Of a stretch of 37,744 nt of DNA, positions 373-35,518 are shown piece after piece. The stretch lies in the IMG/VR virus record IMGVR_UViG_2541047956_000006; one strand, written 5' to 3'. A program made the position numbers and the translations under genes. The notes below the pieces were generated by a model that was given only the letters and a program-made list of their open reading frames with translations, did not search any database and was not told the origin of the DNA. Each line of letters begins with the position of its first letter. Position 1 is the stretch's first letter. The stretch comes from a virus (lineage: Duplodnaviria; Heunggongvirae; Uroviricota; Caudoviricetes).

Positions 373-897
373 TTATACAGCTTTCTTTACATCGTTTTCT
401 CTTACAGGGAAATTATGTTCTTTGCCTTCATACTGAGACAAAATCTCTCTTACTTTTTCCGGTGGTAATGCTTGAAGAGTTTGCAGGGTTTTCTGTTGCT
501 CCACAGTAATCCCTAATGCCTCTAATGCCTTATCTTTACTGACAATTGTAGGCATAAGTCCTTTAATCCCTGCTACACGAATGATCTCCACAGCTGCGGC
601 CTGCTCATCTGGTGTTAAAAAGCTCATTGCATAAATTAGCCTCTCATCAACTGTATGGGCGATTGATGTATGCACTGGTTTATCAGAAAGTGAGGCACCT
701 TTAATGGCCCTGCGTGTTTCTTCTGGCAGACTGTTGATGTGATACTCATAAGCGACACCTTTCCCACCGTGACGCTGACGTTTTACCCAATCTTCCGCCA
801 CAGCTTTCCTGGTAATGTTAGTCGCCAACTTTGGTACACCAGGCATCCCTTCCAGCTCTTTCGCATTAAACCATTCTTTGATTTCAAAAGACATCAT
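373..897 (-). CDS. c: Repressor c (Mu/D108 family)
   Basis: 174 aa, minus strand at the left end, divergent from ner/A; N-terminus ([25 protein letters not shown]) is visibly homologous to the N-terminus of the transposase at 1312. Confidence 0.9.
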   Translation of the reverse strand: MMSFEIKEWFNAKELEGMPGVPKLATNITRKAVAEDWVKRQRHGGKGVAYEYHINSLPEETRRAIKGASLSDKPVHTSIAHTVDERLIYAMSFLTPDEQAAAVEIIRVAGIKGLMPTIVSKDKALEALGITVEQQKTLQTLQALPPEKVREILSQYEGKEHNFPVRENDVKKAV

Positions 898-1082
898 TTA
901 AAATCCTAGTGATTTCAATAGAGACAAAATAAATTCATATAAAAATCATGCCGTTATATGAAATCATGGTAAATCCTCTCAAATCCCTATTGATTTGAGA
1001 GTGATTCCACACTACATTGCACGATATGCCGTGAGCTACTTTATAGCGTAGCTCACGGGGGAATCTGAAAGGATTACATGAA
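898..1082. promoter_or_regulatory. Early operator/promoter region between c and ner; contains an 11-bp inverted repeat, candidate Ner operator
   Basis: Divergent intergenic region; perfect inverted repeat CCGTGAGCTAC (1029..1039) / GTAGCTCACGG (1048..1058) with 8-bp spacer, 25 bp upstream of ner. Confidence 0.6.
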
Positions 1083-1304
1083 ATGCATATGAATAAAAGA
1101 ACTAACCGCCAAGATTGGCACAGAGCTGACATCGTTGCAGAGCTACGAAAACGCAATATGTCACTAGCTGAATTGGGAAGATCTAATCATCTTTCGTCTT
1201 CAACATTGAAAAATGCTTTGGATAAGAGATATCCGAAAGCGGAGAAAATCATTGCAGATGCACTGGGAATGACACCGCAAGATATTTGGCCGTCTCGATA
1301 CTAG
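1083..1304 (+). CDS. ner: Ner, early transcription regulator (not the Mu-proper sequence; D108-like)
   Basis: 73 aa; contains the DWHRADI ... IWPSRY motifs of Ner proteins; position immediately upstream of A. Start may be 1083 or 1089. Confidence 0.9.
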
Positions 1305-1311
1305 GTGCGCT

Positions 1312-3300
1312 ATGAAAGAATGGTATACAGCAAAAGAGTTGCTCGGTTTGGCAGGTTTACCAAAGCAAGCCACTAACATTACACGTAAGGCACAAAGAGA
1401 AGGCTGGGAGTTCAGGCAGGTTGCAGGGACTAAAGGTGTATCATTTGAATTCAATATCAAATCATTCCCTGTCGCATTACGTGCTGAAATTCTGTTGCAA
1501 CAAGGGAGAATTGAAACAAGTCAGGGGTATTTTGAAATCGCCCGCCCCACGCTGGAAGCCCATGATTATGATCGTGAGGCACTGTGGAGCAAATGGGATA
1601 ACGCCAGCGATTCCCAGCGCAGACTTGCTGAAAAATGGTTGCCTGCGGTTCAGGCTGCAGACGAAATGCTGAACCAGGGGATTTCAACAAAAACGGCTTT
1701 TGCGACCGTTGCAGGGCATTACCAGGTCAGCGCATCCACTTTGCGGGACAAGTATTACCAGGTACAGAAGTTTGCGAAGCCTGACTGGGCGGCTGCGCTT
1801 GTTGATGGACGTGGTGCATCCCGTCGCAACGTTCACAAAAGTGAATTTGACGAGGATGCCTGGCAGTTTCTGATTGCAGATTATCTGCGACCGGAAAAGC
1901 CCGCCTTCCGCAAATGTTATGAGCGTCTGGAACTGGCAGCCCGCGAGCATGGCTGGAGTATTCCCTCCCGTGCCACGGCCTTTCGCCGGATTCAGCAACT
2001 GGACGAGGCAATGGTTGTTGCCTGTCGTGAAGGTGAACATGCACTGATGCATCTGATACCGGCACAGCAGCGAACTGTGGAACACCTGGACGCCATGCAG
2101 TGGATCAACGGCGACGGTTATCTGCATAACGTCTTTGTACGCTGGTTTAACGGTGATGTGATCCGCCCGAAAACATGGTTCTGGCAGGATGTGAAAACCC
2201 GAAAAATTCTGGGCTGGCGCTGCGATGTAAGCGAGAACATCGACTCAATTCGCCTCTCGTTTATGGATGTGGTGACACGCTACGGCATCCCGGAGGATTT
2301 TCACATCACCATTGATAACACCCGTGGTGCAGCGAATAAATGGCTGACGGGGGGCGCGCCCAATCGTTACCGCTTTAAGGTAAAAGAGGACGATCCAAAG
2401 GGACTGTTTTTACTGATGGGCGCGAAAATGCACTGGACAAGCGTTGTTGCCGGTAAAGGCTGGGGCCAGGCAAAACCTGTTGAACGTGCTTTCGGTGTTG
2501 GTGGGCTTGAGGAATACGTTGATAAGCATCCGGCACTGGCTGGCGCATATACGGGGCCAAATCCGCAGGCAAAACCTGATAACTATGGCGACCGCGCTGT
2601 TGATGCAGAGCTGTTTCTGAAAACCCTTGCCGAAGGTGTGGCGATGTTCAATGCCAGAACAGGCCGTGAAACAGAAATGTGCGGAGGCAAACTTTCGTTT
2701 GATGACGTTTTTGAGCGTGAATACGCCAGAACGATTGTGCGTAAGCCTACCGAAGAGCAAAAACGGATGCTGTTACTGCCTGCCGAGGCGGTGAACGTTT
2801 CACGTAAAGGCGAGTTCGCGCTTAAAGTTGGCGGCTCCCTTAAAGGTGCGAAAAACGTTTATTACAACATGGCGTTAATGAATGCCGGAGTGAAAAAAGT
2901 TGTGGTCAGATTTGATCCACAGCAGTTACACAGCACGGTTTATTGCTACACCCTGGACGGTCGGTTTATCTGTGAAGCGGAATGTCTGGCACCTGTTGCG
3001 TTTAATGATGCTGCGGCAGGCCGTGAATATCGCCGCCGCCAGAAACAACTGAAATCTGCGACGAAAGCAGCGATTAAGGCACAAAAACAAATGGATGCAC
3101 TGGAAGTGGCAGAGCTGCTGCCGCAGATAGCCGAACCTGAAGCACCAGAATCACGAATTGTCGGCATTTTCCGGCCTTCCGGTAATACGGAACGGGTGAA
3201 GAATCAGGAGCGTGATGATGAATACGAAACTGAGCGTGATGAATATCTGAATCATTCGCTGGATATTCTGGAACAGAACAGACGTAAAAAAGCCATTTAA
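1312..3300 (+). CDS. A: DDE transposase MuA
   Basis: 662 aa; from about residue 75 to the C-terminus (…[16 protein letters not shown]) matches Mu A as I recall it; N-terminal ~70 aa differ. Confidence 0.97.
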
Positions 3301-3338
3301 TTAACGTTTAAACAAAATTTAATTACGAGGTTATTCAG

Positions 3339-4277
3339 ATGAATATTTCCGATATTCGCGCAGGACTGCGCACGCTTGTAGAAAATGAAGAAACCACCTT
3401 TAAACAAATTGCTCTTGAGAGCGGACTTTCTACCGGAACTATCAGTAGTTTTATCAATGATAAGTACAACGGGGATAACGAGCGTGTTTCACAAATGCTG
3501 CAACGCTGGCTGGAAAAATATCATGCAGTTGCAGAATTACCTGAACCGCCCCGCTTTGTGGAAACGCAGACGGTAAAACAAATCTGGACAAGTATGCGTT
3601 TTGCCAGCCTGACTGAAAGTATTGCTGTTGTATGTGGCAATCCTGGTGTGGGCAAAACCGAAGCGGCCCGTGAATATCGCCGCACCAATAACAATGTCTG
3701 GATGATCACCATTACGCCATCCTGTGCCAGCGTTCTGGAATGTCTTACTGAACTGGCGTTTGAGCTGGGAATGAATGACGCACCACGCCGTAAAGGGCCG
3801 CTCTCTCGCGCCCTGCGACGTCGCCTTGAAGGTACACAGGGGCTGGTTATCATCGACGAAGCTGATCATCTTGGTGCCGAAGTTCTGGAAGAACTCCGCC
3901 TGTTACAGGAATCAACCCGTATTGGCCTTGTACTGATGGGAAATCACCGGGTTTATTCAAATATGACGGGGGGTAACAGAACGGTTGAATTTGCCCGTCT
4001 GTTTTCCCGTATTGCAAAGCGCACTGCAATTAATAAAACCAAAAAAGCCGATGTAAAAGCTATTGCGGATGCCTGGCAGATTAACGGCGAAAATGAACTG
4101 GAGTTATTACAGCAGATTGCGCAGAAACCAGGTGCGCTTCGCATTCTGAATCATTCACTTCGCCTTGCCGCCATGACGGCTCACGGTAAAGGTGAGCGTG
4201 TTAACGAAGATTATCTGCGTCAGGCTTTCCGTGAATTAGACCTGGACGTTGATATTTCAACGCTGCTGCGTAATTAA
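3339..4277 (+). CDS. B: MuB ATP-dependent target DNA activator
   Basis: 312 aa; Walker A GNPGVGKT, Walker B VIIDEADHL; position directly after A. Confidence 0.95.
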   Translation: MNISDIRAGLRTLVENEETTFKQIALESGLSTGTISSFINDKYNGDNERVSQMLQRWLEKYHAVAELPEPPRFVETQTVKQIWTSMRFASLTESIAVVCGNPGVGKTEAAREYRRTNNNVWMITITPSCASVLECLTELAFELGMNDAPRRKGPLSRALRRRLEGTQGLVIIDEADHLGAEVLEELRLLQESTRIGLVLMGNHRVYSNMTGGNRTVEFARLFSRIAKRTAINKTKKADVKAIADAWQINGENELELLQQIAQKPGALRILNHSLRLAAMTAHGKGERVNEDYLRQAFRELDLDVDISTLLRN

Positions 4278-4292
4278 GAAGGAGAAGAAATT

Positions 4293-4520
4293 ATGATGGC
4301 CCGAAATATAAAAATGGCAACGGATGCGCAGAACTGGTTACAGGCGCGCGGGAGTCATGTAAATGAATCATATCTCGGCGTGGCGCGTCCGATTCTTGAA
4401 ATCACTTACCCACCGGTGGAACTGGTAAAAAACGCGGTCAGAATTATGGAGCATAAGTCCGGGGTGGCCCGTTCTGTATGGACGGCCCGTCTTAATGGTT
4501 GCCAGATTATCTGGAGATAA
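4293..4520 (+). CDS. kil: Kil (host killing/cell-division inhibition protein)
   Basis: 75 aa ORF immediately after B with RBS GAAGGAGAAG upstream; matches Mu Kil position and size. Confidence 0.8.
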
Positions 4521-4522
4521 CG

Positions 4523-4753
4523 ATGTGTATTAAAGCTGAAAAATATATTGAATGGGTTAAACACTGTCAGTGCCACGGGGTGCCGCTGACGACATATAAA
4601 TGCCCCGGATGCGGTGAACAGATTATGACGCAATGCTCACACGAAAAGGAAATTCGGGATTCCCTGACATGTTGTCCGTGGTGCAGCGCAGTTTTCTTTA
4701 AGCAGGTAAAAGGCGCGAAGGTAAAAGCCAGCGCAGTTATTCAGAATCAATAA
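4523..4753 (+). CDS. Cys-rich small early protein, zinc-ribbon-like
   Basis: 76 aa from ATG 4523 (RBS GGAGATAACG); CQC, CPGC and CCPWC motifs. Track ORF starts at 4499 but that overlaps kil. Confidence 0.6.
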   Translation: MCIKAEKYIEWVKHCQCHGVPLTTYKCPGCGEQIMTQCSHEKEIRDSLTCCPWCSAVFFKQVKGAKVKASAVIQNQ

Positions 4754-4764
4754 GGAGAAATAAA

Positions 4765-5028
4765 ATGGCAAAGGTAATTATTGAAATTAAAAATACAGTA
4801 TCTGGAATTAAAGGACGGAATTTGCGCACCAGCATTGCGGTGGACGGTAGTGCGGAACTGGACGGTGATGAGGGGACACTTGCTGGCATGGTGGCGTTAC
4901 TGGTGCTTAATAAAAGCCAGAAAATAATTAATGAGTCAGCCCATGAAGCTATTGAGATTTTGAAAAACGATGGTGTCATCACAGGTGGCAGTGTCACTGA
5001 AATGGCTGTTGAAAAAACATGTCACTGA
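4765..5028 (+). CDS. Hypothetical early protein
   Basis: 87 aa ORF with RBS AAGGAGAAATAAA upstream; tightly packed in early operon. Confidence 0.6.
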   Translation: MAKVIIEIKNTVSGIKGRNLRTSIAVDGSAELDGDEGTLAGMVALLVLNKSQKIINESAHEAIEILKNDGVITGGSVTEMAVEKTCH

Positions 5029-5462
5029 AAGGAACGCTGACAATGAACGTCAAAATCCGAAATGAAATTCAGGCATTAATCCGAATTCAGGAACGCAATA
5101 ACAACGGTGGTGAATTACGCGAGTTTATTTGCACCCGGAAAGTTGATGATTGTGGTGAAAAGACGTACCTGATCGCTTTCGACCATTACAGCATCTGTGC
5201 GCGTTATTGCGGCGAAAGCATATCCCGCGCCATTGCATTTGGCGGTGCGTTCAACGTGGATTTATGGGAGTACGTCATGGACCGGGAATACATCTGCGCA
5301 TCAGACCCTGAAGCCCGTGAAATGTGGCAGCGTATCTGGCGCGATTACCGGTTAATGGCAAAAGGCTGGGCGCGCTGCTGTTATTCCTCACTTGCCCTGA
5401 AAGCGGTTCAGTTATCGCTGCGGCATATTCCGGCATCACTGCGCGAGCCTCTGCTGTACTGA
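5019..5462 (+). CDS. Hypothetical early protein (start 5019 or 5043)
   Basis: 147 aa ORF; alternative ATG at 5043 has a better-spaced AGGA. Confidence 0.6.
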   Translation: MSLKGTLTMNVKIRNEIQALIRIQERNNNGGELREFICTRKVDDCGEKTYLIAFDHYSICARYCGESISRAIAFGGAFNVDLWEYVMDREYICASDPEAREMWQRIWRDYRLMAKGWARCCYSSLALKAVQLSLRHIPASLREPLLY

Positions 5463-6935: not shown

Positions 6936-7465
6936 TGTTTTTTAAAACGTCAAATCCCGCAGCACTGCTGGCGTGGGACCAGTTTATGGCGGACTGTCTG
7001 AAACTACGCGAAGAAGCCCGCCATCTTGATAAGGTTCTGGGTTGTGGTTGCCGGTCAGTATTCAGCACAGGTATTGGTGGGCGTTATTTTCATGGTGTGA
7101 ACTTTCCGGGGAATGAGCGCCCTTTCTCGCGGGAGCTGTGGACCGTACAACGGCCCGCATCAGGTAACAGTTGCAGGCCAAGAACATCGCGCATTCCTGC
7201 ACATCTGCGGGAGCAGTCAAAAGAGCTGGCGAAAATATGGCAGGAGAATATTCCGGTCACTTATGCCCGTACTGACGCTCTCTTACCCGCACTGGGACTG
7301 GATTTCAGCGCAACAATATTCGGCCCGCTCCGGTGGTTCCGTGTTGGTGATGTGATTTACGTCATGACAGGGATGACTCCCGCACAGGGCCGCATGACTG
7401 AAATCCTTTCTGACGAATTTATCCGGGCGCAAAAACAGGCGGAGGTAAACAATGGAAAACAATGA
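6935..7465 (+). CDS. Hypothetical early protein
   Basis: 176 aa from ATG 6935, preceded by CAGGAGG; track ORF from 6896 overlaps the upstream gene. Confidence 0.6.
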   Translation: MFFKTSNPAALLAWDQFMADCLKLREEARHLDKVLGCGCRSVFSTGIGGRYFHGVNFPGNERPFSRELWTVQRPASGNSCRPRTSRIPAHLREQSKELAKIWQENIPVTYARTDALLPALGLDFSATIFGPLRWFRVGDVIYVMTGMTPAQGRMTEILSDEFIRAQKQAEVNNGKQ

Positions 7466-7634
7466 AACATCGTATTCGTGGCTGGGGAAATTTACCACGG
7501 TGAAACAGGAATGCCCGACCTGCGGTAATGAATCCCCTGAATATCTGAAAGAGTGCCCTCATTGTGGCGGGCAGAAATGTAACCACTGCGATATGGGCGA
7601 TGACACGGCGTGCATGAATTGTGAAGGTGAGTGA
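7452..7634 (+). CDS. Small zinc-finger-like protein (four CxxC pairs)
   Basis: 60 aa with CPTC, CPHC, CNHC, CMNC. Confidence 0.55.
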   Translation: MENNETSYSWLGKFTTVKQECPTCGNESPEYLKECPHCGGQKCNHCDMGDDTACMNCEGE

Positions 7635-7635
7635 C

Positions 7636-7944
7636 ATGAATAATGGTGTATTTTCAAAATCAGAAGAGCTTGCCGCCCTGCTGATTGCCGGTGGTTTGCC
7701 GAAAAAAGAAGTGCATGACTTTGTGAATTTTGTATATGAGCCGTCTCATGAAAAAGCTATTGATGAGGTCATGGCGTACCGGTTTGGCATTATTGCTGAG
7801 TCACTGAGTCCTCACTGGATTATTGAAAATCTCCGCGCTATTGCTGATGGCAACGATAAATCAGCAGCCGTTGCTGCACTGGATGTGTTACGGCAAATGA
7901 GTCTGAAATTTTATCCTGAATTTATTCTGAGGGCCGCAAAATGA
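7636..7944 (+). CDS. Hypothetical early protein
   Basis: 102 aa from ATG 7636 with RBS AAGGTGAG; track start 7621 is a GTG overlapping the previous gene. Confidence 0.6.
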   Translation: MNNGVFSKSEELAALLIAGGLPKKEVHDFVNFVYEPSHEKAIDEVMAYRFGIIAESLSPHWIIENLRAIADGNDKSAAVAALDVLRQMSLKFYPEFILRAAK

Positions 7945-8243
7945 ACAATGAAGATAAATTTACTCCCCTTAATATTGATAACGTCATGGCTGAAAAAGGG
8001 ATGCTGGAACGTGTTCGCGCTATCGTTGAATATGGTATTAAGCATAATCTCACCGCCAGAGAAGTCCGTGACATTATCAACCGCGAAATGAATCGTCTGG
8101 AAACAGTAGTGGCACTGCAAAATGAAACAGCCCGCGAGGAGTACATCCGCCGCAGGCTGGGGTTATCAGACCAGGATATTGTTACTGACGCTCATGTGTT
8201 TGAGGCTTTTGAGATCCGTCAGCATCTGGGTCTAACGAACTGA
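7941..8243 (+). CDS. Hypothetical early protein
   Basis: 100 aa; start overlaps previous stop (ATGA). Confidence 0.6.
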   Translation: MNNEDKFTPLNIDNVMAEKGMLERVRAIVEYGIKHNLTAREVRDIINREMNRLETVVALQNETAREEYIRRRLGLSDQDIVTDAHVFEAFEIRQHLGLTN

Positions 8244-8448
8244 TAATGTCTTCCATGATCTTTGACAGTTGCATGTTTTCGCGGCGGCTTGTTCTTATTG
8301 CAGGCGCATCTTTTAAAATCTCTGCTGAAGAGCTGAAAATGGCCTGGCCCTCTTCTGCGGTGATGATCGCCTTCTTCACCAGAAGGCGCACCAGTGCTGA
8401 TGCAATCGCATAACCTGCAACATCATAAGGTTGTACATTATTTTCCAT
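8182..8448 (-). CDS. Candidate antisense small protein (88 aa), unknown function
   Basis: Fills the largest plus-strand coding gap in the prophage (8244..8517); ATG at 8448 preceded by GAGAGGA with ~4-nt spacing; balanced, helix-like composition. Confidence 0.35.
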   Translation of the reverse strand: MENNVQPYDVAGYAIASALVRLLVKKAIITAEEGQAIFSSSAEILKDAPAIRTSRRENMQLSKIMEDIISSLDPDADGSQKPQTHERQ

Positions 8449-8517
8449 AAAATCCTCTCTGATTGATGTGTAAATTCAGGCGGTGTTGCAGCACCGCCTC
8501 TTTCCGGAGGTACGATC

Positions 8518-9069
8518 ATGAATCGCACATCCCTGATTAAATTAATCCATGTCGCCCGTCGGGAGCTACAACTCGACGACGACACTTACCGCGCTTTTCT
8601 GATGCAGAAAACGGGCAAAATCAGTTGCCGCGAGCTGACGGTTACGCAACTGGAACAGGTGCTCGATGCCATGAAAGAACGCGGCTTTAAGAAGCTGAAT
8701 AAACATCCACGTCGCCGCTTTAAGGGGCATGTCACGCCCCGCGAGAAGGTATACAAAGTCTGGCAGCAGATGGCAGAAGACGGTTTTATTACCGATGGCG
8801 GTGATGTGGCGCTGGATAAATATGTTCAGCGCCTGACGGCGAAACGTAATGGCGGACAGGGTGTTTCCACGCTGGCGTGGTGTCATGGCGACACCCTGTT
8901 GATTGTTCTCGAAACTCTCAAGCAGTGGCATATCCGCTGTATTCGTGAAGCCTTTTCCCGTCACGGGCTTCCGTTGCCAGTCAGTCCGTCCGGGCGTGAA
9001 CTGCGCGGCTATGATGCCATGACGGCGGCTTATGCCCGTGCCAGAAAGACACGGAGGATGGCACAATGA
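8518..9069 (+). CDS. gemA: GemA-like early protein
   Basis: 183 aa; RBS GGAGG 7 nt upstream; directly precedes mor with overlapping stop/start. Confidence 0.85.
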   Translation: MNRTSLIKLIHVARRELQLDDDTYRAFLMQKTGKISCRELTVTQLEQVLDAMKERGFKKLNKHPRRRFKGHVTPREKVYKVWQQMAEDGFITDGGDVALDKYVQRLTAKRNGGQGVSTLAWCHGDTLLIVLETLKQWHIRCIREAFSRHGLPLPVSPSGRELRGYDAMTAAYARARKTRRMAQ

Positions 9070-9455
9070 CGGAAGATTTATTTGGTGATTTGCAGGATGA
9101 CACCATCCTGGCACATCTTGACAATCCCGCAGAGGATACGTCACGCTTTCCGGCACTGCTGGCGGAGCTGAACGATTTACTGCGCGGGGAATTGTCCCGG
9201 TTAGGTGTTGACCCGGCCCATTCACTGGAGATTGTTGTGGCTATCTGTAAGCATCTGGGCGGCGGTCAGGTCTACATTCCACGCGGTCAGGTTCTGGATT
9301 CGCTTATTCGGGATTTGCGTATCTGGAATGATTTCAACGGTCGCAATGTTCACGAACTGGCAATCCGTCATGGTGTGACATTTAACACAGTCTATAAAGC
9401 CATCCGACGAATGCGGCGTATAAAGTATCGTCAGTATTCCCCCCCTTTGTTTTAA
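9066..9455 (+). CDS. mor: Mor, middle operon regulator
   Basis: 129 aa; shares the GG.QVYIP ... FNGRN motifs with C protein at 10434; matches Mu Mor as recalled. Confidence 0.93.
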   Translation: MTEDLFGDLQDDTILAHLDNPAEDTSRFPALLAELNDLLRGELSRLGVDPAHSLEIVVAICKHLGGGQVYIPRGQVLDSLIRDLRIWNDFNGRNVHELAIRHGVTFNTVYKAIRRMRRIKYRQYSPPLF

Positions 9456-9537: not shown

Positions 9538-10098
9538 ATGCCTGAGTTTTCCCCTGCATTCCTTCATTCGCTGAATTTCGTTATACGCCCTGATGTTGAA
9601 GGTGGCTATGTTAATGATCCTGCCGACCGTGGCGGCGAAACGAAATACGGTATTTCTGACCGTCGCGACGGCGTTATTGATGGCAAAACCGATGTTAACG
9701 GTGACGGAAAACCTGATACCCGCATTAAGGATTTAACCCGCGAGCAGGCGGCGCAGATCTACTGGCGTGATTACTGGCTGGCGGCAAAGTGTAACGAATG
9801 GCCTGATGGCGTTTCCTTATTCGTTTTTGATGCTGCCGTTCAGCACGGTGTTAAACGCGCGATTCAGATCCTCCAGGCGGCAGCAGGTGTTGATGATGAT
9901 GGCATCGTCGGTAAAAACACACGCGCAGCCGTTCTGCGTGCCGATACTGACTGGCTGCTGTTGCAGTGCTTCCTGCGTCGTTCCCGCTATTACGCAGGGA
10001 TTATCAAATCCAGTGCCTCGCAGGGGAAATATCTGAATGGCTGGTTTAACCGTCTGGATCTGCTCGCCAGCGCCTGTCGGGAGGTTCTGCATGGGTAA
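9538..10098 (+). CDS. GH108-like muramidase with C-terminal peptidoglycan-binding (PG_binding_3-like) region
   Basis: 186 aa; EGGYVNDPADRGGETKYGIS motif typical of GH108 N-termini; later DDDGIVGKNTRAAV resembles the PG-binding domain. Confidence 0.7.
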   Translation: MPEFSPAFLHSLNFVIRPDVEGGYVNDPADRGGETKYGISDRRDGVIDGKTDVNGDGKPDTRIKDLTREQAAQIYWRDYWLAAKCNEWPDGVSLFVFDAAVQHGVKRAIQILQAAAGVDDDGIVGKNTRAAVLRADTDWLLLQCFLRRSRYYAGIIKSSASQGKYLNGWFNRLDLLASACREVLHG

Positions 10099-34002: not shown

Positions 34003-34030
34003 AAATTAAGGCCCGATATCGGGCCTTCTC

Positions 34031-34564
34031 TCATTCTGGTTGTTCGGGAAACGTTACTGGCAGGCTGGAAGTGTCTGTAGATTCGACTTTCTGCGCAAAG
34101 AGCATCCACTCTGTTAATTTTTGTTTATTCTCGTCGGAAATGATGCCCAGCCGTAGCTGTGAGTCCCATAGCTGGGTTTTATCCCTGACAAGTTGCAACA
34201 GGCTTTGCTTTTCATTCTCTGCCTGCTGCCTCTGTTCCTCCTCGGTATAAGTTCGCTTTATCACTACGCCATCTTTGAACATCCATTTACCCGAAATATC
34301 AGCACGGCGATTTGCTGTAATATCAGGAACCTCAACGACGCTTGCGCCTTCTGGATTAATTGCTGAAACATCCTTTTCAATACAAATAATAACGCCGTTG
34401 TGGTCATAGACCATTTTCAACGTATCAGGCTGAAAGTTCTTTTGTTCCTCATACCAGTTTTTCCCATCCTCTGTATAAAGCCATTTGATGTTAAATTGTT
34501 TCGTTAGCTGGTATTGCTCTTTTGTTTTAGGGTTGCCAGCAGTAATATTTTTTAAGTGCATCAT
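34031..34564 (-). CDS. Alternative tail fibre assembly protein U'
   Basis: 177 aa, paralog of U, inside the G segment in inverted orientation. Confidence 0.85.
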   Translation of the reverse strand: MMHLKNITAGNPKTKEQYQLTKQFNIKWLYTEDGKNWYEEQKNFQPDTLKMVYDHNGVIICIEKDVSAINPEGASVVEVPDITANRRADISGKWMFKDGVVIKRTYTEEEQRQQAENEKQSLLQLVRDKTQLWDSQLRLGIISDENKQKLTEWMLFAQKVESTDTSSLPVTFPEQPE

Positions 34565-34566
34565 AA

Positions 34567-35518
34567 TTAAATACTCCCCGCGTTATACCACGTTCCATTA
34601 ATGCAATACTGAATTGGCCTTGCCTGAGTTGTATCAATTAATTCATCACGGTTTCCGTTAACTGAACCCGTAACGACATAACCTGACCTGTCAGACCAGC
34701 CGGGACCATTCCATGTCTGAACAGATGACAGACCGCCAAGGCGAATACCTGTAATAAACCTTGAGTTACATTCTGCCTGCGTGTATGCACCAACATCTCC
34801 CGCAGAGGGTTTGCGGGTTGTGGTGTAAAACTCTGACCAGTCAGCTTCAAAGCCATAACCATCACGCGCTGAACGATAAAAGATACCGCCATTTCTGTAA
34901 TTCACGCGGAACTGTACAGCAGGGCAGCTCCCCGTATTCATATTGAAGTGGAGGATTAATGTCGATGCGCCACCAATATTTGCGTTATAGACCCCGCTAT
35001 TCCAGTTCCAGCCAACAGCTTTATCATTTCCGACAGTGCTTCCTGTTTGCCCTAAAGCAAATGCAGACTGCTGGTTTTTCGTGTTGTAGTCTCGTCGCCA
35101 GCCAGGAGCATAAGCATCACCATGATTAATATAGGTGAATTGAGCGTTAGTAATTCCGCCACCGCTGGAAGTGCTCGGGGTGGTTACACGGATGGTCATG
35201 GCTCCTTTATTACCCATAACCTCAATAACGCAACCTGCAAGATGAATAGTTCCACAGCCAGTATCGGTAATAATTTTATTATTGCCGTATGACCATGAAC
35301 ATTTGCACATCCAGTATGGGTGATTGAATGCCCCTTGAGAATCCAGCCATTCAATCAATTGTGCCGTCGTCCAGTTTCCTGCACCTGTGCTAATAGCACC
35401 ATGAAAAGAGCGGCAAGCACCTATTGTTTGCGTAAATTTATCTTTGTTTGGAATATCTGCGCCATTCTGGTTTTTCTGCAACGCACCAGAAGCCTGATTT
35501 ACCGTTTCCTGTAAACCG
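34567..35518 (-). CDS. Alternative tail fibre variable C-terminal part S' (no own start; fused to the constant part of S after inversion)
   Basis: Open frame running into the right gix repeat; its first codons ([11 protein letters not shown]) repeat the sequence at the constant/variable junction of S. Track start at 35481 is a TTG. Confidence 0.8.

Follow-up and report, generated by a model that had tools for sequence, protein, structure and literature searches.

The short leftward OOP RNA of phage lambda is non-coding; it overlaps the 3′ end of the rightward early gene cII and ends at an intrinsic terminator. In phage Mu, where mor is the master switch to middle and late transcription, what lies just upstream of gemA-mor depends on the record that is consulted. 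A leftward gene, gp15, is annotated there as Mup15 in the RefSeq record NC_000929 and as gp16 in SfMu, and PGAP also calls it as a CDS in E. coli; the primary Mu record, GenBank AF083977.1, has dropped gp15 and now places a 55-aa ORF, Mu_54, on the plus strand instead. Two public annotations of a reference phage therefore conflict over a stretch of 274 nt. The gene call discussed here is not new, since gp15 already figures in some Mu records, and comparative evidence, as analysed below, settles the choice of strand in favour of gp15, a useful piece of housekeeping for Mu biology rather than a surprise. Beyond the records, we add a covarying, predicted minus-strand terminator in gp14, a link with a gene of phage D108 and a recurrent antisense accessory slot before gemA-mor. 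Literature searches on gp15, including by accession, found nothing, and papers on SfMu and on Yersinia Mu-like phages do not mention it.

The window (the whole stretch of DNA that was analysed, 37,744 nt) is a prophage of the Mu/SfMu type. Its DNA is 100% identical to that of Yersinia phage vB_YpM_5, and the identity is 99.9% with SfMu and 97% with Mu. An earlier note on this DNA described the rightward early operon as made of overlapping or abutting genes. The coordinates bear this out (7452..7634, 7621..7944, 7941..8243, then 8518..9069 and 9066..9455), and the interval 8244..8517 (274 nt) indeed holds no plus-strand ORF of at least 60 aa. That interval had been taken for the largest of its kind in the prophage; this is so inside the early operon, but in the whole window it comes fifth, after 469..1082, 34003..34760, 34947..35319 and the end segment 1..285, and the three internal larger gaps contain minus-strand ORFs (373..897, 34031..34564 and 34567..35481). 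The antisense ORF of 88 aa that had been proposed to cover it is there, on the minus strand at 8182..8448, with its ATG at 8448..8446 and its TAA at 8184..8182, and so is its ribosome-binding site GAGAGGA (8459..8453), which can be read directly from the sequence 4 nt upstream of the ATG. The competing plus-strand ORF of 55 aa, at 8246..8413, exists as well: it is Mu_54.

The antisense frame and its flanking signals

As judged from its match to the family profile, the minus-strand ORF is the orthologue of Mu gp15 (Mup15, NP_050619.1), of SfMu gp16 (YP_009152202.1) and of PHROG 8747, against which it aligns end to end (residues 1-88 on an 88-position profile, E 1.3e-60). Its product is identical (100%) to SfMu gp16 and shares 95.5% of its residues with Mu gp15, from which it differs at four positions only (Q35K, I51M, N58K and M59L). 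Position, strand, length, overlap with gp14 and the 69-nt spacer to gemA are the same as in Mu and SfMu, and nothing substantive sets the window gene apart. Its last 62 nt overlap, tail to tail, the 3′ end of gp14, an early gene of PHROG 6075 on the plus strand (7941..8243). This arrangement is conserved in other lineages, with an overlap of 45-62 nt, as is the position immediately upstream of gemA-mor.

Three prophage clades, with a protein identity of only 43-51%, retain a minus-strand ORF of 86-88 codons together with its start, its Shine-Dalgarno (SD) sequence and its stop. In clade B (about 74% nucleotide identity) the ORF has 88 codons and 50% amino acid identity; in clade C it has 86 codons and 43-45% identity. 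The SD sequence and the start codon are retained in every lineage of the antisense gene, the equivalents of GAGAGGA being AGAGGAAG in clade B, AGAAGG in clade C and AAGGAAA in D108. Only on the minus strand does codon usage resemble that of genes: the log-odds per codon is 0.26 in the minus frame and 0.06 in the plus frame, where real genes average 0.33 and none falls below 0.12. GC and AT skew also flip across the minus ORF. The constraint on the protein is nevertheless moderate, with about 50% identity between clades versus 82% for GemA.

Past the stop codon, the minus strand carries a predicted strong intrinsic terminator for gp15 (8159..8117), which lies inside the coding sequence of gp14. 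It begins 22 nt beyond the TAA with a GC-rich stem-loop at 8159..8128, CAGCCUGCGGCGGAUGUACUCCUCGCGGGCUG, of about -20 kcal/mol, followed directly by a tail at 8127..8117, UUUCAUUUUGC, which on the transcribed strand gives the U-rich tract UUUCAUUUU. Among only seven terminator-like sites in the whole window (75 kb, both strands counted) it is the strongest, and AF083977.1 lists this element too, as a TransTermHP terminator. An equivalent hairpin with its T-run is found in clades B and C, in D108 and in lineage L034. When 32-nt segments chosen by anchoring on the hairpin are compared over these five lineages, the nine outer stem pairs are paired throughout (45/45 cells, 100%) with three compensatory pairs, so that the element appears to be conserved via compensatory and G·U changes. 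The G·U pairs are valid only in minus-strand RNA, and in four of the five lineages the RNA of the minus strand folds more stably than that of the plus strand. The reading of this stretch as an opposite-strand gene thus gains support from frame scores, from codon usage, from the break of the plus ORF in clade C (see below) and from a minus-strand terminator in five lineages. That the ORF at 8182..8448 is a real protein gene with its own terminator we take as highly probable.

The other hairpin of the region belongs to the opposite strand. The earlier note had placed a hairpin with a 7-bp stem before gemA; it does exist, at 8479..8498 rather than at 8471..8490, as the conserved and GC-rich GGCGGTG-TTGCAG-CACCGCC; on the plus strand, a T-rich run comes next and then the SD sequence of gemA (GGAGG, 8506..8510). 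The hairpin folds at -21.6 kcal/mol (z -2.5), and is 100% paired across lineages with compensatory changes in 3/7 pairs; in lineage L027 it has a T8 tail. It is present in vB_YpM_3, D108 and L031-L034, and because it is kept in phages that do not have gp15 we assign it to the gemA module; it also falls within the 5′ region of gp15. Its appearance is that of a terminator or an attenuator acting on the plus strand, or else of a structure in the mRNA ahead of gemA. By analogy with Pm/t9.2, the dyad was also considered as a Mor-type activator site, and rejected, its spacing to any -10 box and to the gp15 ATG being unfit. A scan of 7800..8800 with Rfam 15 returned two chance-level matches (E 0.11 and 0.85), far below gathering scores.

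Scans with consensus sigma-70 elements found no site on the minus strand upstream of gp15, and a PWM scan of four lineages found no convincing or conserved sigma-70 promoter, either for gp15 or for a plus-strand Pgem. A weak candidate for gp15 is located on the minus strand at 8540..8512, with a -35 box TTAATC (8540..8535), a 17-nt spacer and a -10 box GATCGT (8517..8512); its PWM score of 3.2 is no better than that of about 1000 other sites of the window. Its counterpart in clade B scores 6.8, with a -10 box TATCGT. The candidate, the best of those conserved in position, overlaps the start of gemA, and would place the hairpin 8479..8498 in the 5′ UTR of gp15. The record AF083977.1 has a ‘semi-early promoter’ feature at Mu 8151..8217, corresponding to about 8436..8502 in the window, hence over the start of gp15. 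Conservation at synonymous sites of the gemA 5′ end is only slightly raised (0.20 versus 0.27-0.35).

Transcript, opposite frame or control DNA

The alternative that survives best would see the leftward unit as mainly a matter of RNA, or of the act of transcription, the ORF being secondary. In one variant an antisense transcript would target the early mRNA where gp14 meets gemA, as OOP targets cII; in another, head-on transcription would damp read-through into gemA-mor. The geometry of the locus speaks for such a role, with its conserved 3′ overlap, its place before gemA-mor, a terminator embedded in gp14 and a terminator-like plus-strand hairpin just before gemA; low-level transcription from Pe has moreover been reported in lysogens (PMC3820752). 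What it leaves aside is the protein, conserved through synonymous changes as witnessed by the motif YDVAGY, retained in clade C despite three third-position changes. The protein domain is kept in D108-type cassettes where the DNA is unrelated and, as we have seen, SD and start codon never disappear. A pure RNA function would need none of these, and phages that have no cassette are viable. We consider this reading to be quite improbable.

It could next be supposed that Mu_54 (8246..8413) is the real gene of the early operon, and that the minus ORF is its antisense shadow. This would keep the operon unidirectional and agree with the curated primary record of Mu; clades A and B leave the Mu_54 frame open, with a dN/dS (0.20-0.46) well under that of the other four frames, and its codon score of +0.06 is above that of typical shadow frames (maximum -0.15). 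The low dN/dS is explained by the third codon positions that Mu_54 has in common with the minus frame. For the same reason dN/dS alone is weak in separating the strands, and in the comparison of clade B with clade C it is 0.20 for both frames. The periodicity of substitutions (24/18/39 differences by codon position) was likewise dropped as a strand test, because the two ORFs share third positions, and within-clade polymorphisms, mostly non-synonymous (6/9 and 14/23), do not discriminate between the frames. The nature of the substitutions is more telling. Across clade pairs dN/dS is lowest in the minus frame (0.20-0.36), which also has the highest amino acid identity, a BLOSUM sum of 172 and a mean substitution score of +0.15 to +0.31, the only positive one of all frames. 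In the Mu_54 frame the BLOSUM sum is 109-121 and the changes are radical, with a mean score of -0.42 to -0.95, as in the shadow frames of gemA and gp14, the control genes on which the tests were calibrated and which displayed the same true-versus-shadow pattern. The comparison of synonymous with non-synonymous change that had been suggested as a check was thus run, and it favours the minus frame over the 55-aa ORF.

Further features set Mu_54 apart from a gene. In clade C its frame lacks an ATG and is interrupted by a stop; in clade B its start is displaced by one codon and its stop comes later. It has no SD sequence (the Mu record lists a 3-nt ‘RBS’) and no PHROG or Pfam match, its codon log-odds is below that of every training gene, and it misses 8414..8448, where conservation peaks and where the most conserved motif, YDVAGY, is encoded. 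Open shadow frames are not exceptional here, as the frame opposite gp14 runs without stops over 75 codons, and a plus-strand gene would leave the D108-type cassette and the minus-strand terminator unexplained. On the sequences of clade C, the view of Mu_54 as a gene appears largely refuted; we read it as an antisense shadow of gp15, and would be most surprised to see it reinstated. A compromise, in which both strands would be translated as a true pair of antisense overlapping genes, draws on the two frames being open in clades A and B and on a codon usage slightly better than that of typical shadows, yet it meets the same broken frame in clade C, the absence of Mu_54 from D108-type cassettes, its shadow-like substitutions and its missing SD, and we find it just as hard to believe. 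The idea that the stretch is non-coding control DNA, i.e. the region of a semi-early promoter Pgem with a chance open frame on the minus strand, would suit the promoter feature of AF083977.1 and an older literature where the E15-E16 interval was intergenic (annotation of the 1991 era lists only ‘putative’ reverse ORFs), but it is next to impossible to reconcile with 3-periodic substitutions, gene-like codon usage, an ORF kept in five lineages with homology at profile level, an SD and a terminator, while the annotated promoter spans no more than 13 nt at the 5′ end of the ORF and has no good conserved sigma-70 match on the plus strand.

The protein, its relatives and the slot before gemA

The gp15 product would be a small, slightly acidic, cytoplasmic protein. 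AF2 models of moderate confidence (pLDDT 66) predict three helices, a hairpin of helices that is confidently modelled at residues 10-46, and a tail that is disordered, acidic and rich in proline. Its conserved part is the N-terminal helical hairpin (approximately residues 6-38), YDVAGYxIASxLxxLLVxKGxITxEEGxxI. Fold searches with the model returned generic helical bundles and no informative match, and sequence profiles from Pfam, NCBIfam, PADLOC and the PDB gave no usable functional homology; PADLOC models matched neither gp15, nor its homologues in clades B and C, nor the D108 ORF, gp14 or the DUF2513 protein mentioned below. The family is tiny: word-indexed and exhaustive protein searches found proteins of enterobacterial Mu-type prophages only. 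Two further matches were set aside, a 1438-aa D/T-rich repeat protein (P0007), whose 12 matches look compositional, and a Verrucomicrobiota tblastn match (L008, 36% identity over 61 residues) which is probably due to chance.

The one trace of a described domain, below threshold, points to SHOCT (Eberhardt et al. 2013, PMC3581485). Members of this clan (Pfam PF09851) have, like gp15, two amphipathic helices folded into a hairpin of some 30 residues, whose pattern is hydrophobic-x-x-L-hydrophobic-x-K-G-hydrophobic-I-T-x-E-E. SHOCT-type models are the best Pfam match of four of the ten members of the gp15 family, all far below gathering scores (at most 16 bits versus 24-27); the best, for one member of clade B, has E 0.0014 and 16 bits versus a cut-off of 27. 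The window protein itself, where Ala replaces a conserved Gly, has no match to Pfam SHOCT, and the domain is typically C-terminal whereas the hairpin of gp15 is N-terminal.

That small genes of this kind are often accessory, as had been anticipated, agrees with a clean 223-nt deletion (8245..8467) in vB_YpM_3 and vB_YpM_23, which are plaque-forming Yersinia phages, and in an E. coli prophage (OZ040490). Because it is cleanly deleted in plaque-forming phages, we class gp15 as accessory, and, judging from the same genomes, it is dispensable for lytic growth. Occasional copies are frameshifted or disrupted by an IS, and in lineage L031 gp14 and gp15 are both lost. A PHROG 6075 gene stands upstream in all five lineages that have an antisense gene of the gp15 superfamily, and none of the six lineages where a different gene abuts gemA has such an antisense gene. 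As far as genome comparison tells, gp15 and gp14 travel together as a cassette that can be acquired, lost or exchanged; gp14 is the constant convergent partner, and it supplies the DNA for the C-terminal tail of gp15 and for the embedded terminator.

This slot has other occupants. In D108, directly upstream of gemA, it is filled by an antisense ORF of 119 aa (PHROG 38610, also present in Mu_3F6) which the D108 records leave unannotated. This ORF has no detectable DNA similarity and no pairwise BLASTP similarity to gp15; at the protein level, both the D108 ORF and that of L034, found in the same slot immediately upstream of gemA and sharing the N-terminal hairpin, match the related PHROG 32893 over the same stretch as gp15 does, and hhalign gives a probability of 82% (E 1e-5). 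The ORF of D108 and Mu_3F6 thus resembles gp15 in its slot, its orientation, its tail-to-tail overlap with a PHROG 6075 gene, its downstream minus-strand terminator and its N-terminal helical-hairpin domain; it differs by an N-terminal extension of 27 residues and by another C-terminal half. In a further lineage (L036), a DUF2513 gene is found as alternative cargo at the slot.

The proposed leftward unit and known systems

We can understand gp15 as the coding part of a compact leftward unit that would be nested convergently in the rightward early operon, in the order SD (8459..8453), ATG (8448), 88 codons, TAA (8184..8182) and terminator (8159..8117) in gp14. That a genuine gp15 gene forms such a unit inside the operon is the best overall explanation, and a very probable one. 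Its transcript, predicted at about 330-390 nt, would unavoidably be complementary to the early mRNA across the junction of gp14 and gemA. Because the unit would run head-on against early transcription driven from Pe, its expression would be most likely when Pe is quiet, in the prophage or ahead of full induction. The protein would most likely bind another protein, or associate with itself via its amphipathic hairpin, and could act as an accessory factor in interaction with the host or the phage. Timing and mechanism, taken jointly, make a tentative proposal, more apt to fail in one of its parts than to hold as a whole. If gp15 is expressed in lysogens, it would be among the very few Mu genes that are read against the early operon, and a candidate to explain those phenotypes of lysogens, so far poorly mapped, that belong to the semi-essential early region.

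A bolder view, which we hold to be unlikely, would make of gp14 and the antisense gene of the gp15 superfamily a co-inherited convergent module acting as a brake or a sensor in the lysogenic phase. Placed directly before the plus-strand attenuator hairpin and gemA-mor, this module would use its leftward transcript and its hairpin protein to suppress, or to report, leaky read-through into mor in the prophage; on full induction of Pe it would be silenced by head-on transcription. Alternatively, it might provide an exclusion or host-modulating function expressed in the lysogen. Were this true, Mu-type phages would have in this slot an antisense accessory locus that had gone unrecognised, able to host unrelated cargo such as DUF2513 as well.

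Returning to the leftward gp15 gene as such, we may compare it with two kinds of known elements. Like the morons of phages (lambda bor and lom, or those of the HK97 type), it is small, present or absent among near-identical phages, provided with its own (predicted) terminator, unneeded for plaque formation and located at a mosaic boundary that hosts other cassettes (DUF2513 in L036). Unlike them, it yielded no convincing promoter in sigma-70 scans, its base composition is not deviant (GC 0.47-0.49 across the ORF, with flanks at 0.40-0.55), and it overlaps a neighbour gene rather than sitting between genes, its terminator being inside that neighbour. With the OOP RNA of lambda it shares a leftward orientation, a 3′ overlap of approximately 55-62 nt with an early gene and an end at an intrinsic terminator, which is here predicted; in contrast to OOP, its putative transcript would encode a conserved protein, from an ORF that has its own SD sequence.

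Coding strand between gene 14 and gemA

The antisense open reading frame at 8182..8448 (minus strand, 88 aa), re-read from the sequence just as the earlier note had described it, with its Shine-Dalgarno (SD) motif GAGAGGA at 8459..8453 of the minus strand, 4 nt from the ATG, has the semi-essential early genes of Mu as its neighbours, and is therefore located between Mu gene 14 and gemA. It falls in PHROG 8747 (E 1.3e-60), and is annotated as Mup15/gp15 in the RefSeq Mu record NC_000929, as gp16 in SfMu and by PGAP in E. coli prophages; a 1991 left-end record has a 134-aa 'putative' reverse ORF. As the feature is the already annotated gp15 of Mu, its novelty is low. The public Mu records are at odds here, NC_000929.1 having gp15 on the minus strand and the updated primary record, AF083977.1, having removed it in favour of a plus-strand ORF of 55 aa, Mu_54 (8246..8413, found where the earlier note had seen it), with an RBS feature of only 3 nt, so that the question becomes which strand codes. 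AF083977.1 also places a 'semi-early promoter' at Mu 8151..8217, that is at about 8436..8502 of the window, spanning the gp15 start and the hairpin that precedes gemA. What is added here is a resolution of this conflict, an embedded covarying terminator, a link to an unannotated ORF of phage D108 and a recurrent antisense slot upstream of gemA.

The 274-nt stretch 8244..8517 is indeed free of plus-strand ORFs of 60 aa or more; its description as the largest gap holds within the early operon and fails for the window, where three larger internal gaps hold minus-strand ORFs. The gp15 and Mu_54 frames share third codon positions, as follows from their coordinates, so that periodicity is unable to separate them and divergent relatives are required. 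These were clade B, from E. coli genomes (approximately 74% nucleotide identity over 8100..8600), and clade C, from Salmonella, recovered by an exhaustive phmmer search (P0009; loci L023-L026). These two clades and that of the window (three of three) each keep a minus-strand ORF, 86-88 codons long and preceded by an SD, with start and stop region in common, at 43-51% amino acid identity. When the comparison of frames is restricted to the 204 nt without gp14 overlap, the minus frame displays a dN/dS of 0.20-0.36, an amino acid identity of 46-51%, a BLOSUM sum of 172 and a mean substitution score of +0.15 to +0.31, to be set against 0.20-0.46, 42-48%, 109-121 and -0.42 to -0.95 for the Mu_54 frame, the remaining four frames having a dN/dS of 0.6-2.1. 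As a control, two established genes, gemA and gp14, were put through the identical calculation: substitutions score on average about +0.2 in their true frames and -0.9 to -1.6 in the shadow frames that share their third positions, the same signature as that of the minus frame versus Mu_54.

The view implied by AF083977.1, that Mu_54 is the true gene, meets further difficulties: in clade C its frame has an internal stop and its ATG is absent, while in clade B the start has moved by one codon and the stop comes five codons later. The best-conserved motif, YDVAGY, encoded at about 8410..8427, lies largely past the Mu_54 stop, and clade C retains it via three synonymous changes. With 25 long genes of the window prophage as training set, codon-usage log-odds reach +0.26 per codon in the minus ORF, +0.36 in its non-overlapping part and +0.06 in Mu_54, where real genes average 0.33 and none falls below 0.12; GC and AT skew are both inverted across the gp15 ORF. 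Substitution scores, breakage in clade C, codon usage and skew thus led us to reject Mu_54 as a gene, in favour of a shadow of gp15. It is common here for a real gene to have a long open shadow ORF on its other strand. The frame antisense to gp14 that shares its third positions, for example, remains without stop over 75 codons (7956..8181), in the window and in clade B, which makes an open antisense ORF unremarkable. We conclude from this comparison of sequences that the minus ORF is the gene and Mu_54 its shadow, gp15 being very likely a real gene; conservation, in favouring the minus frame over the 55-aa ORF, bears out the antisense reading first proposed.

Structures flanking gp15

For the minus strand an intrinsic terminator is predicted, located 22 nt beyond the gp15 stop and inside the coding sequence of gp14 (7941..8243, plus strand); it is made of a stem-loop (8159..8128) followed by UUUCAUUUUGC (8127..8117). 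This leftward stem-loop, at -20.6 kcal/mol, is the strongest of seven terminator-like sites on both strands of the 37.7-kb window, and in AF083977.1 it is annotated as a TransTermHP terminator. A hairpin and T-run occupy the equivalent place in clades B and C, in D108 and in an E. coli prophage (L034), even with a differing gp14 protein. In 32-mers from five lineages, picked by eye and aligned with the hairpin as anchor, pairing holds for the nine outer pairs in 45 of 45 cells; three stem pairs have compensatory changes, there are G·U pairs for which the rightward RNA would have A·C mismatches, and in four of the five lineages it is the leftward RNA that forms the more stable hairpin. Of the indirect evidence at hand, this putative terminator speaks most strongly for a discrete leftward transcript, and it would explain why the antisense gene travels with gp14.

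The second structure, GGCGGTG-TTGCAG-CACCGCC, directly 5' of the gemA SD, does exist, at 8479..8498, the coordinates first given for it being eight bases too far to the left; apart from this shift and the 'largest gap' wording, the earlier observation was essentially right, and its interpretation is supported. Its loop is variable and its stem conserved, invariant or compensated (three of seven pairs compensatory, 100% of cells paired in five lineages). Along the plus strand the hairpin leads into a T-rich run, a perfect T8 in the Salmonella locus L027, and then into the gemA SD; it is conserved also in L027, L033 and L034. As it is kept in phages that lack gp15 (vB_YpM_3, L031, L032 and L033), the hairpin belongs to the gemA side, and is most simply read as a putative rightward terminator or attenuator, or an mRNA structure, ahead of gemA-mor, which the Mu records compared do not annotate as terminator or attenuator. 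It may also lie within the gp15 5' UTR, depending on the gp15 transcription start site.

A recurrent antisense slot

DNA homology between D108 and the window ends at the hairpin, and neither of the two D108 records annotates a gene in the 376-nt interval before gemA. An antisense ORF of 119 aa is present there (NC_013594.1; L028:811..1170, minus strand), matching PHROG 38610 (E 8e-83) and called in Mu_3F6, with a related minus ORF in L034. Pairwise BLASTP found no similarity between gp15 and these D108/L034-type ORFs. PHROG 32893 is matched, over the same N-terminal region, by all five proteins (gp15, E 2e-4; clade B, 1e-7; clade C, 2e-5; D108, 5e-7; L034, 2e-10), and profile-profile comparison aligns gp15 residues 1-38 with D108-type residues 27-64 (probability 82%, E 1e-5). 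These proteins have in common a helical hairpin, (Y/F)x(V/I)(A/T)(G/A)(Y/F)...L...L(V/I)x(K/N)G(V/I/L)I...(D/E)(A/G)..I, predicted by AF2 as helices 10-25 and 31-46, the highest-confidence part of the model (block-mean pLDDT 79-90).

The rightward gene that these ORFs overlap tail-to-tail is, in each of the five lineages, of PHROG 6075, the gp14 family, and in the six lineages where another gene abuts gemA the gp15-superfamily gene is absent every time, three of these upstream genes being assigned to other PHROGs. Were the protein not made, its conservation among cassettes whose DNA is unrelated would be hard to account for. One lineage (L036, E. coli MIN10, NZ_CP069677.1) has an unrelated antisense gene in the same slot: located at 754..1170 of the minus strand, 30 nt upstream of gemA and overlapping the preceding rightward gene, it codes for 138 aa and is named 'DUF2513 domain-containing' by PGAP, the Pfam scan giving this match only below threshold (E 0.017). 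The GGCGGTG hairpin is missing from L036. Separately, a metagenomic protein of 1438 aa with D/T-rich tandem repeats (P0007) has 12 matches to gp15 residues 28-80 (E 1e-23), which are probably compositional or repeat-driven and not a sign of homology.

Dispensability, possible role and neighbourhood

Two phages that form plaques, vB_YpM_3 and vB_YpM_23, as well as one E. coli prophage, lack exactly positions 8245..8467 (a 223-nt deletion with TGAT microhomology), so that the SD, the start and 68 codons of gp15 are gone, gp14 and the hairpin remaining in place. Another prophage lacks both gp14 and gp15, one gp15 copy (P0004) is frameshifted, and in L027, a Salmonella Aberdeen contig, the 3' end of the homologue is disrupted by an IS256-family (Transposase_mut) element (4236..5444), resulting in an aberrant 90-aa protein (P0008). 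Protein identity between clades is about 50% for gp15, 82% for GemA and 73% for gp14, and many within-clade polymorphisms of gp15 are non-synonymous. Clean deletion in plaque-forming phages, broken copies and moderate constraint make up the profile of an accessory gene, in keeping with the character first attributed to it.

Nothing above threshold was found for a function of gp15 in Pfam, NCBIfam, PADLOC, PDB or Rfam; four of ten family members have as their best match, below threshold, a two-helix domain of the SHOCT type (lowest E 0.0014), SHOCT being itself of unknown function (PMC3581485), and fold searches returned generic helical bundles only. Scans identified no sigma-70 promoter for gp15. 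The unit stands head-on to the strong transcript of the rightward early promoter Pe, with its own predicted terminator, and the most economical reading of this arrangement is that it would be active while Pe is quiet, either in the lysogen or at a stage before induction is complete. The leftward RNA would necessarily be antisense to the gp14-gemA junction, and the small protein, with its amphipathic hairpin, would act by binding to a partner. This mechanism, expression when Pe is quiet together with partner binding, is tentative, and we hold it with low confidence only. In a Pseudomonas transposable phage small lysogen-expressed genes exclude superinfecting phages (PMC9936078), and low-level Pe read-through is documented in Mu lysogens (PMC3820752); both observations are compatible with activity under a quiet Pe, and neither counts as evidence for it.

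The 1-kb stretch around gp15 is 100% identical to the Yersinia phages vB_YpM_5 and vB_YpM_6, 99.9% to the Shigella phage SfMu and 97% to coliphage Mu; among the neighbours of gp15 are gemA (8518..9069; Pfam GemA, E 2e-30) and mor (9066..9455). The Salmonella loci L023 and L024 carry a second gene opposite the early operon strand (3052..3387, locus coordinates), which codes for 111 aa without a family match; it lies downstream of gemA, and a further small gene (2860..3051) separates it from mor. L025 and L026, similar in other respects, lack it. Directly after mor, the window has at 9538..10098 a glycoside hydrolase family 108 gene (so named by PGAP in L007, an E. coli locus of identical sequence), whereas Mu and SfMu have at this position the small genes 18-20 and C, so that the middle region of the window prophage is organised unlike that of the reference phages.
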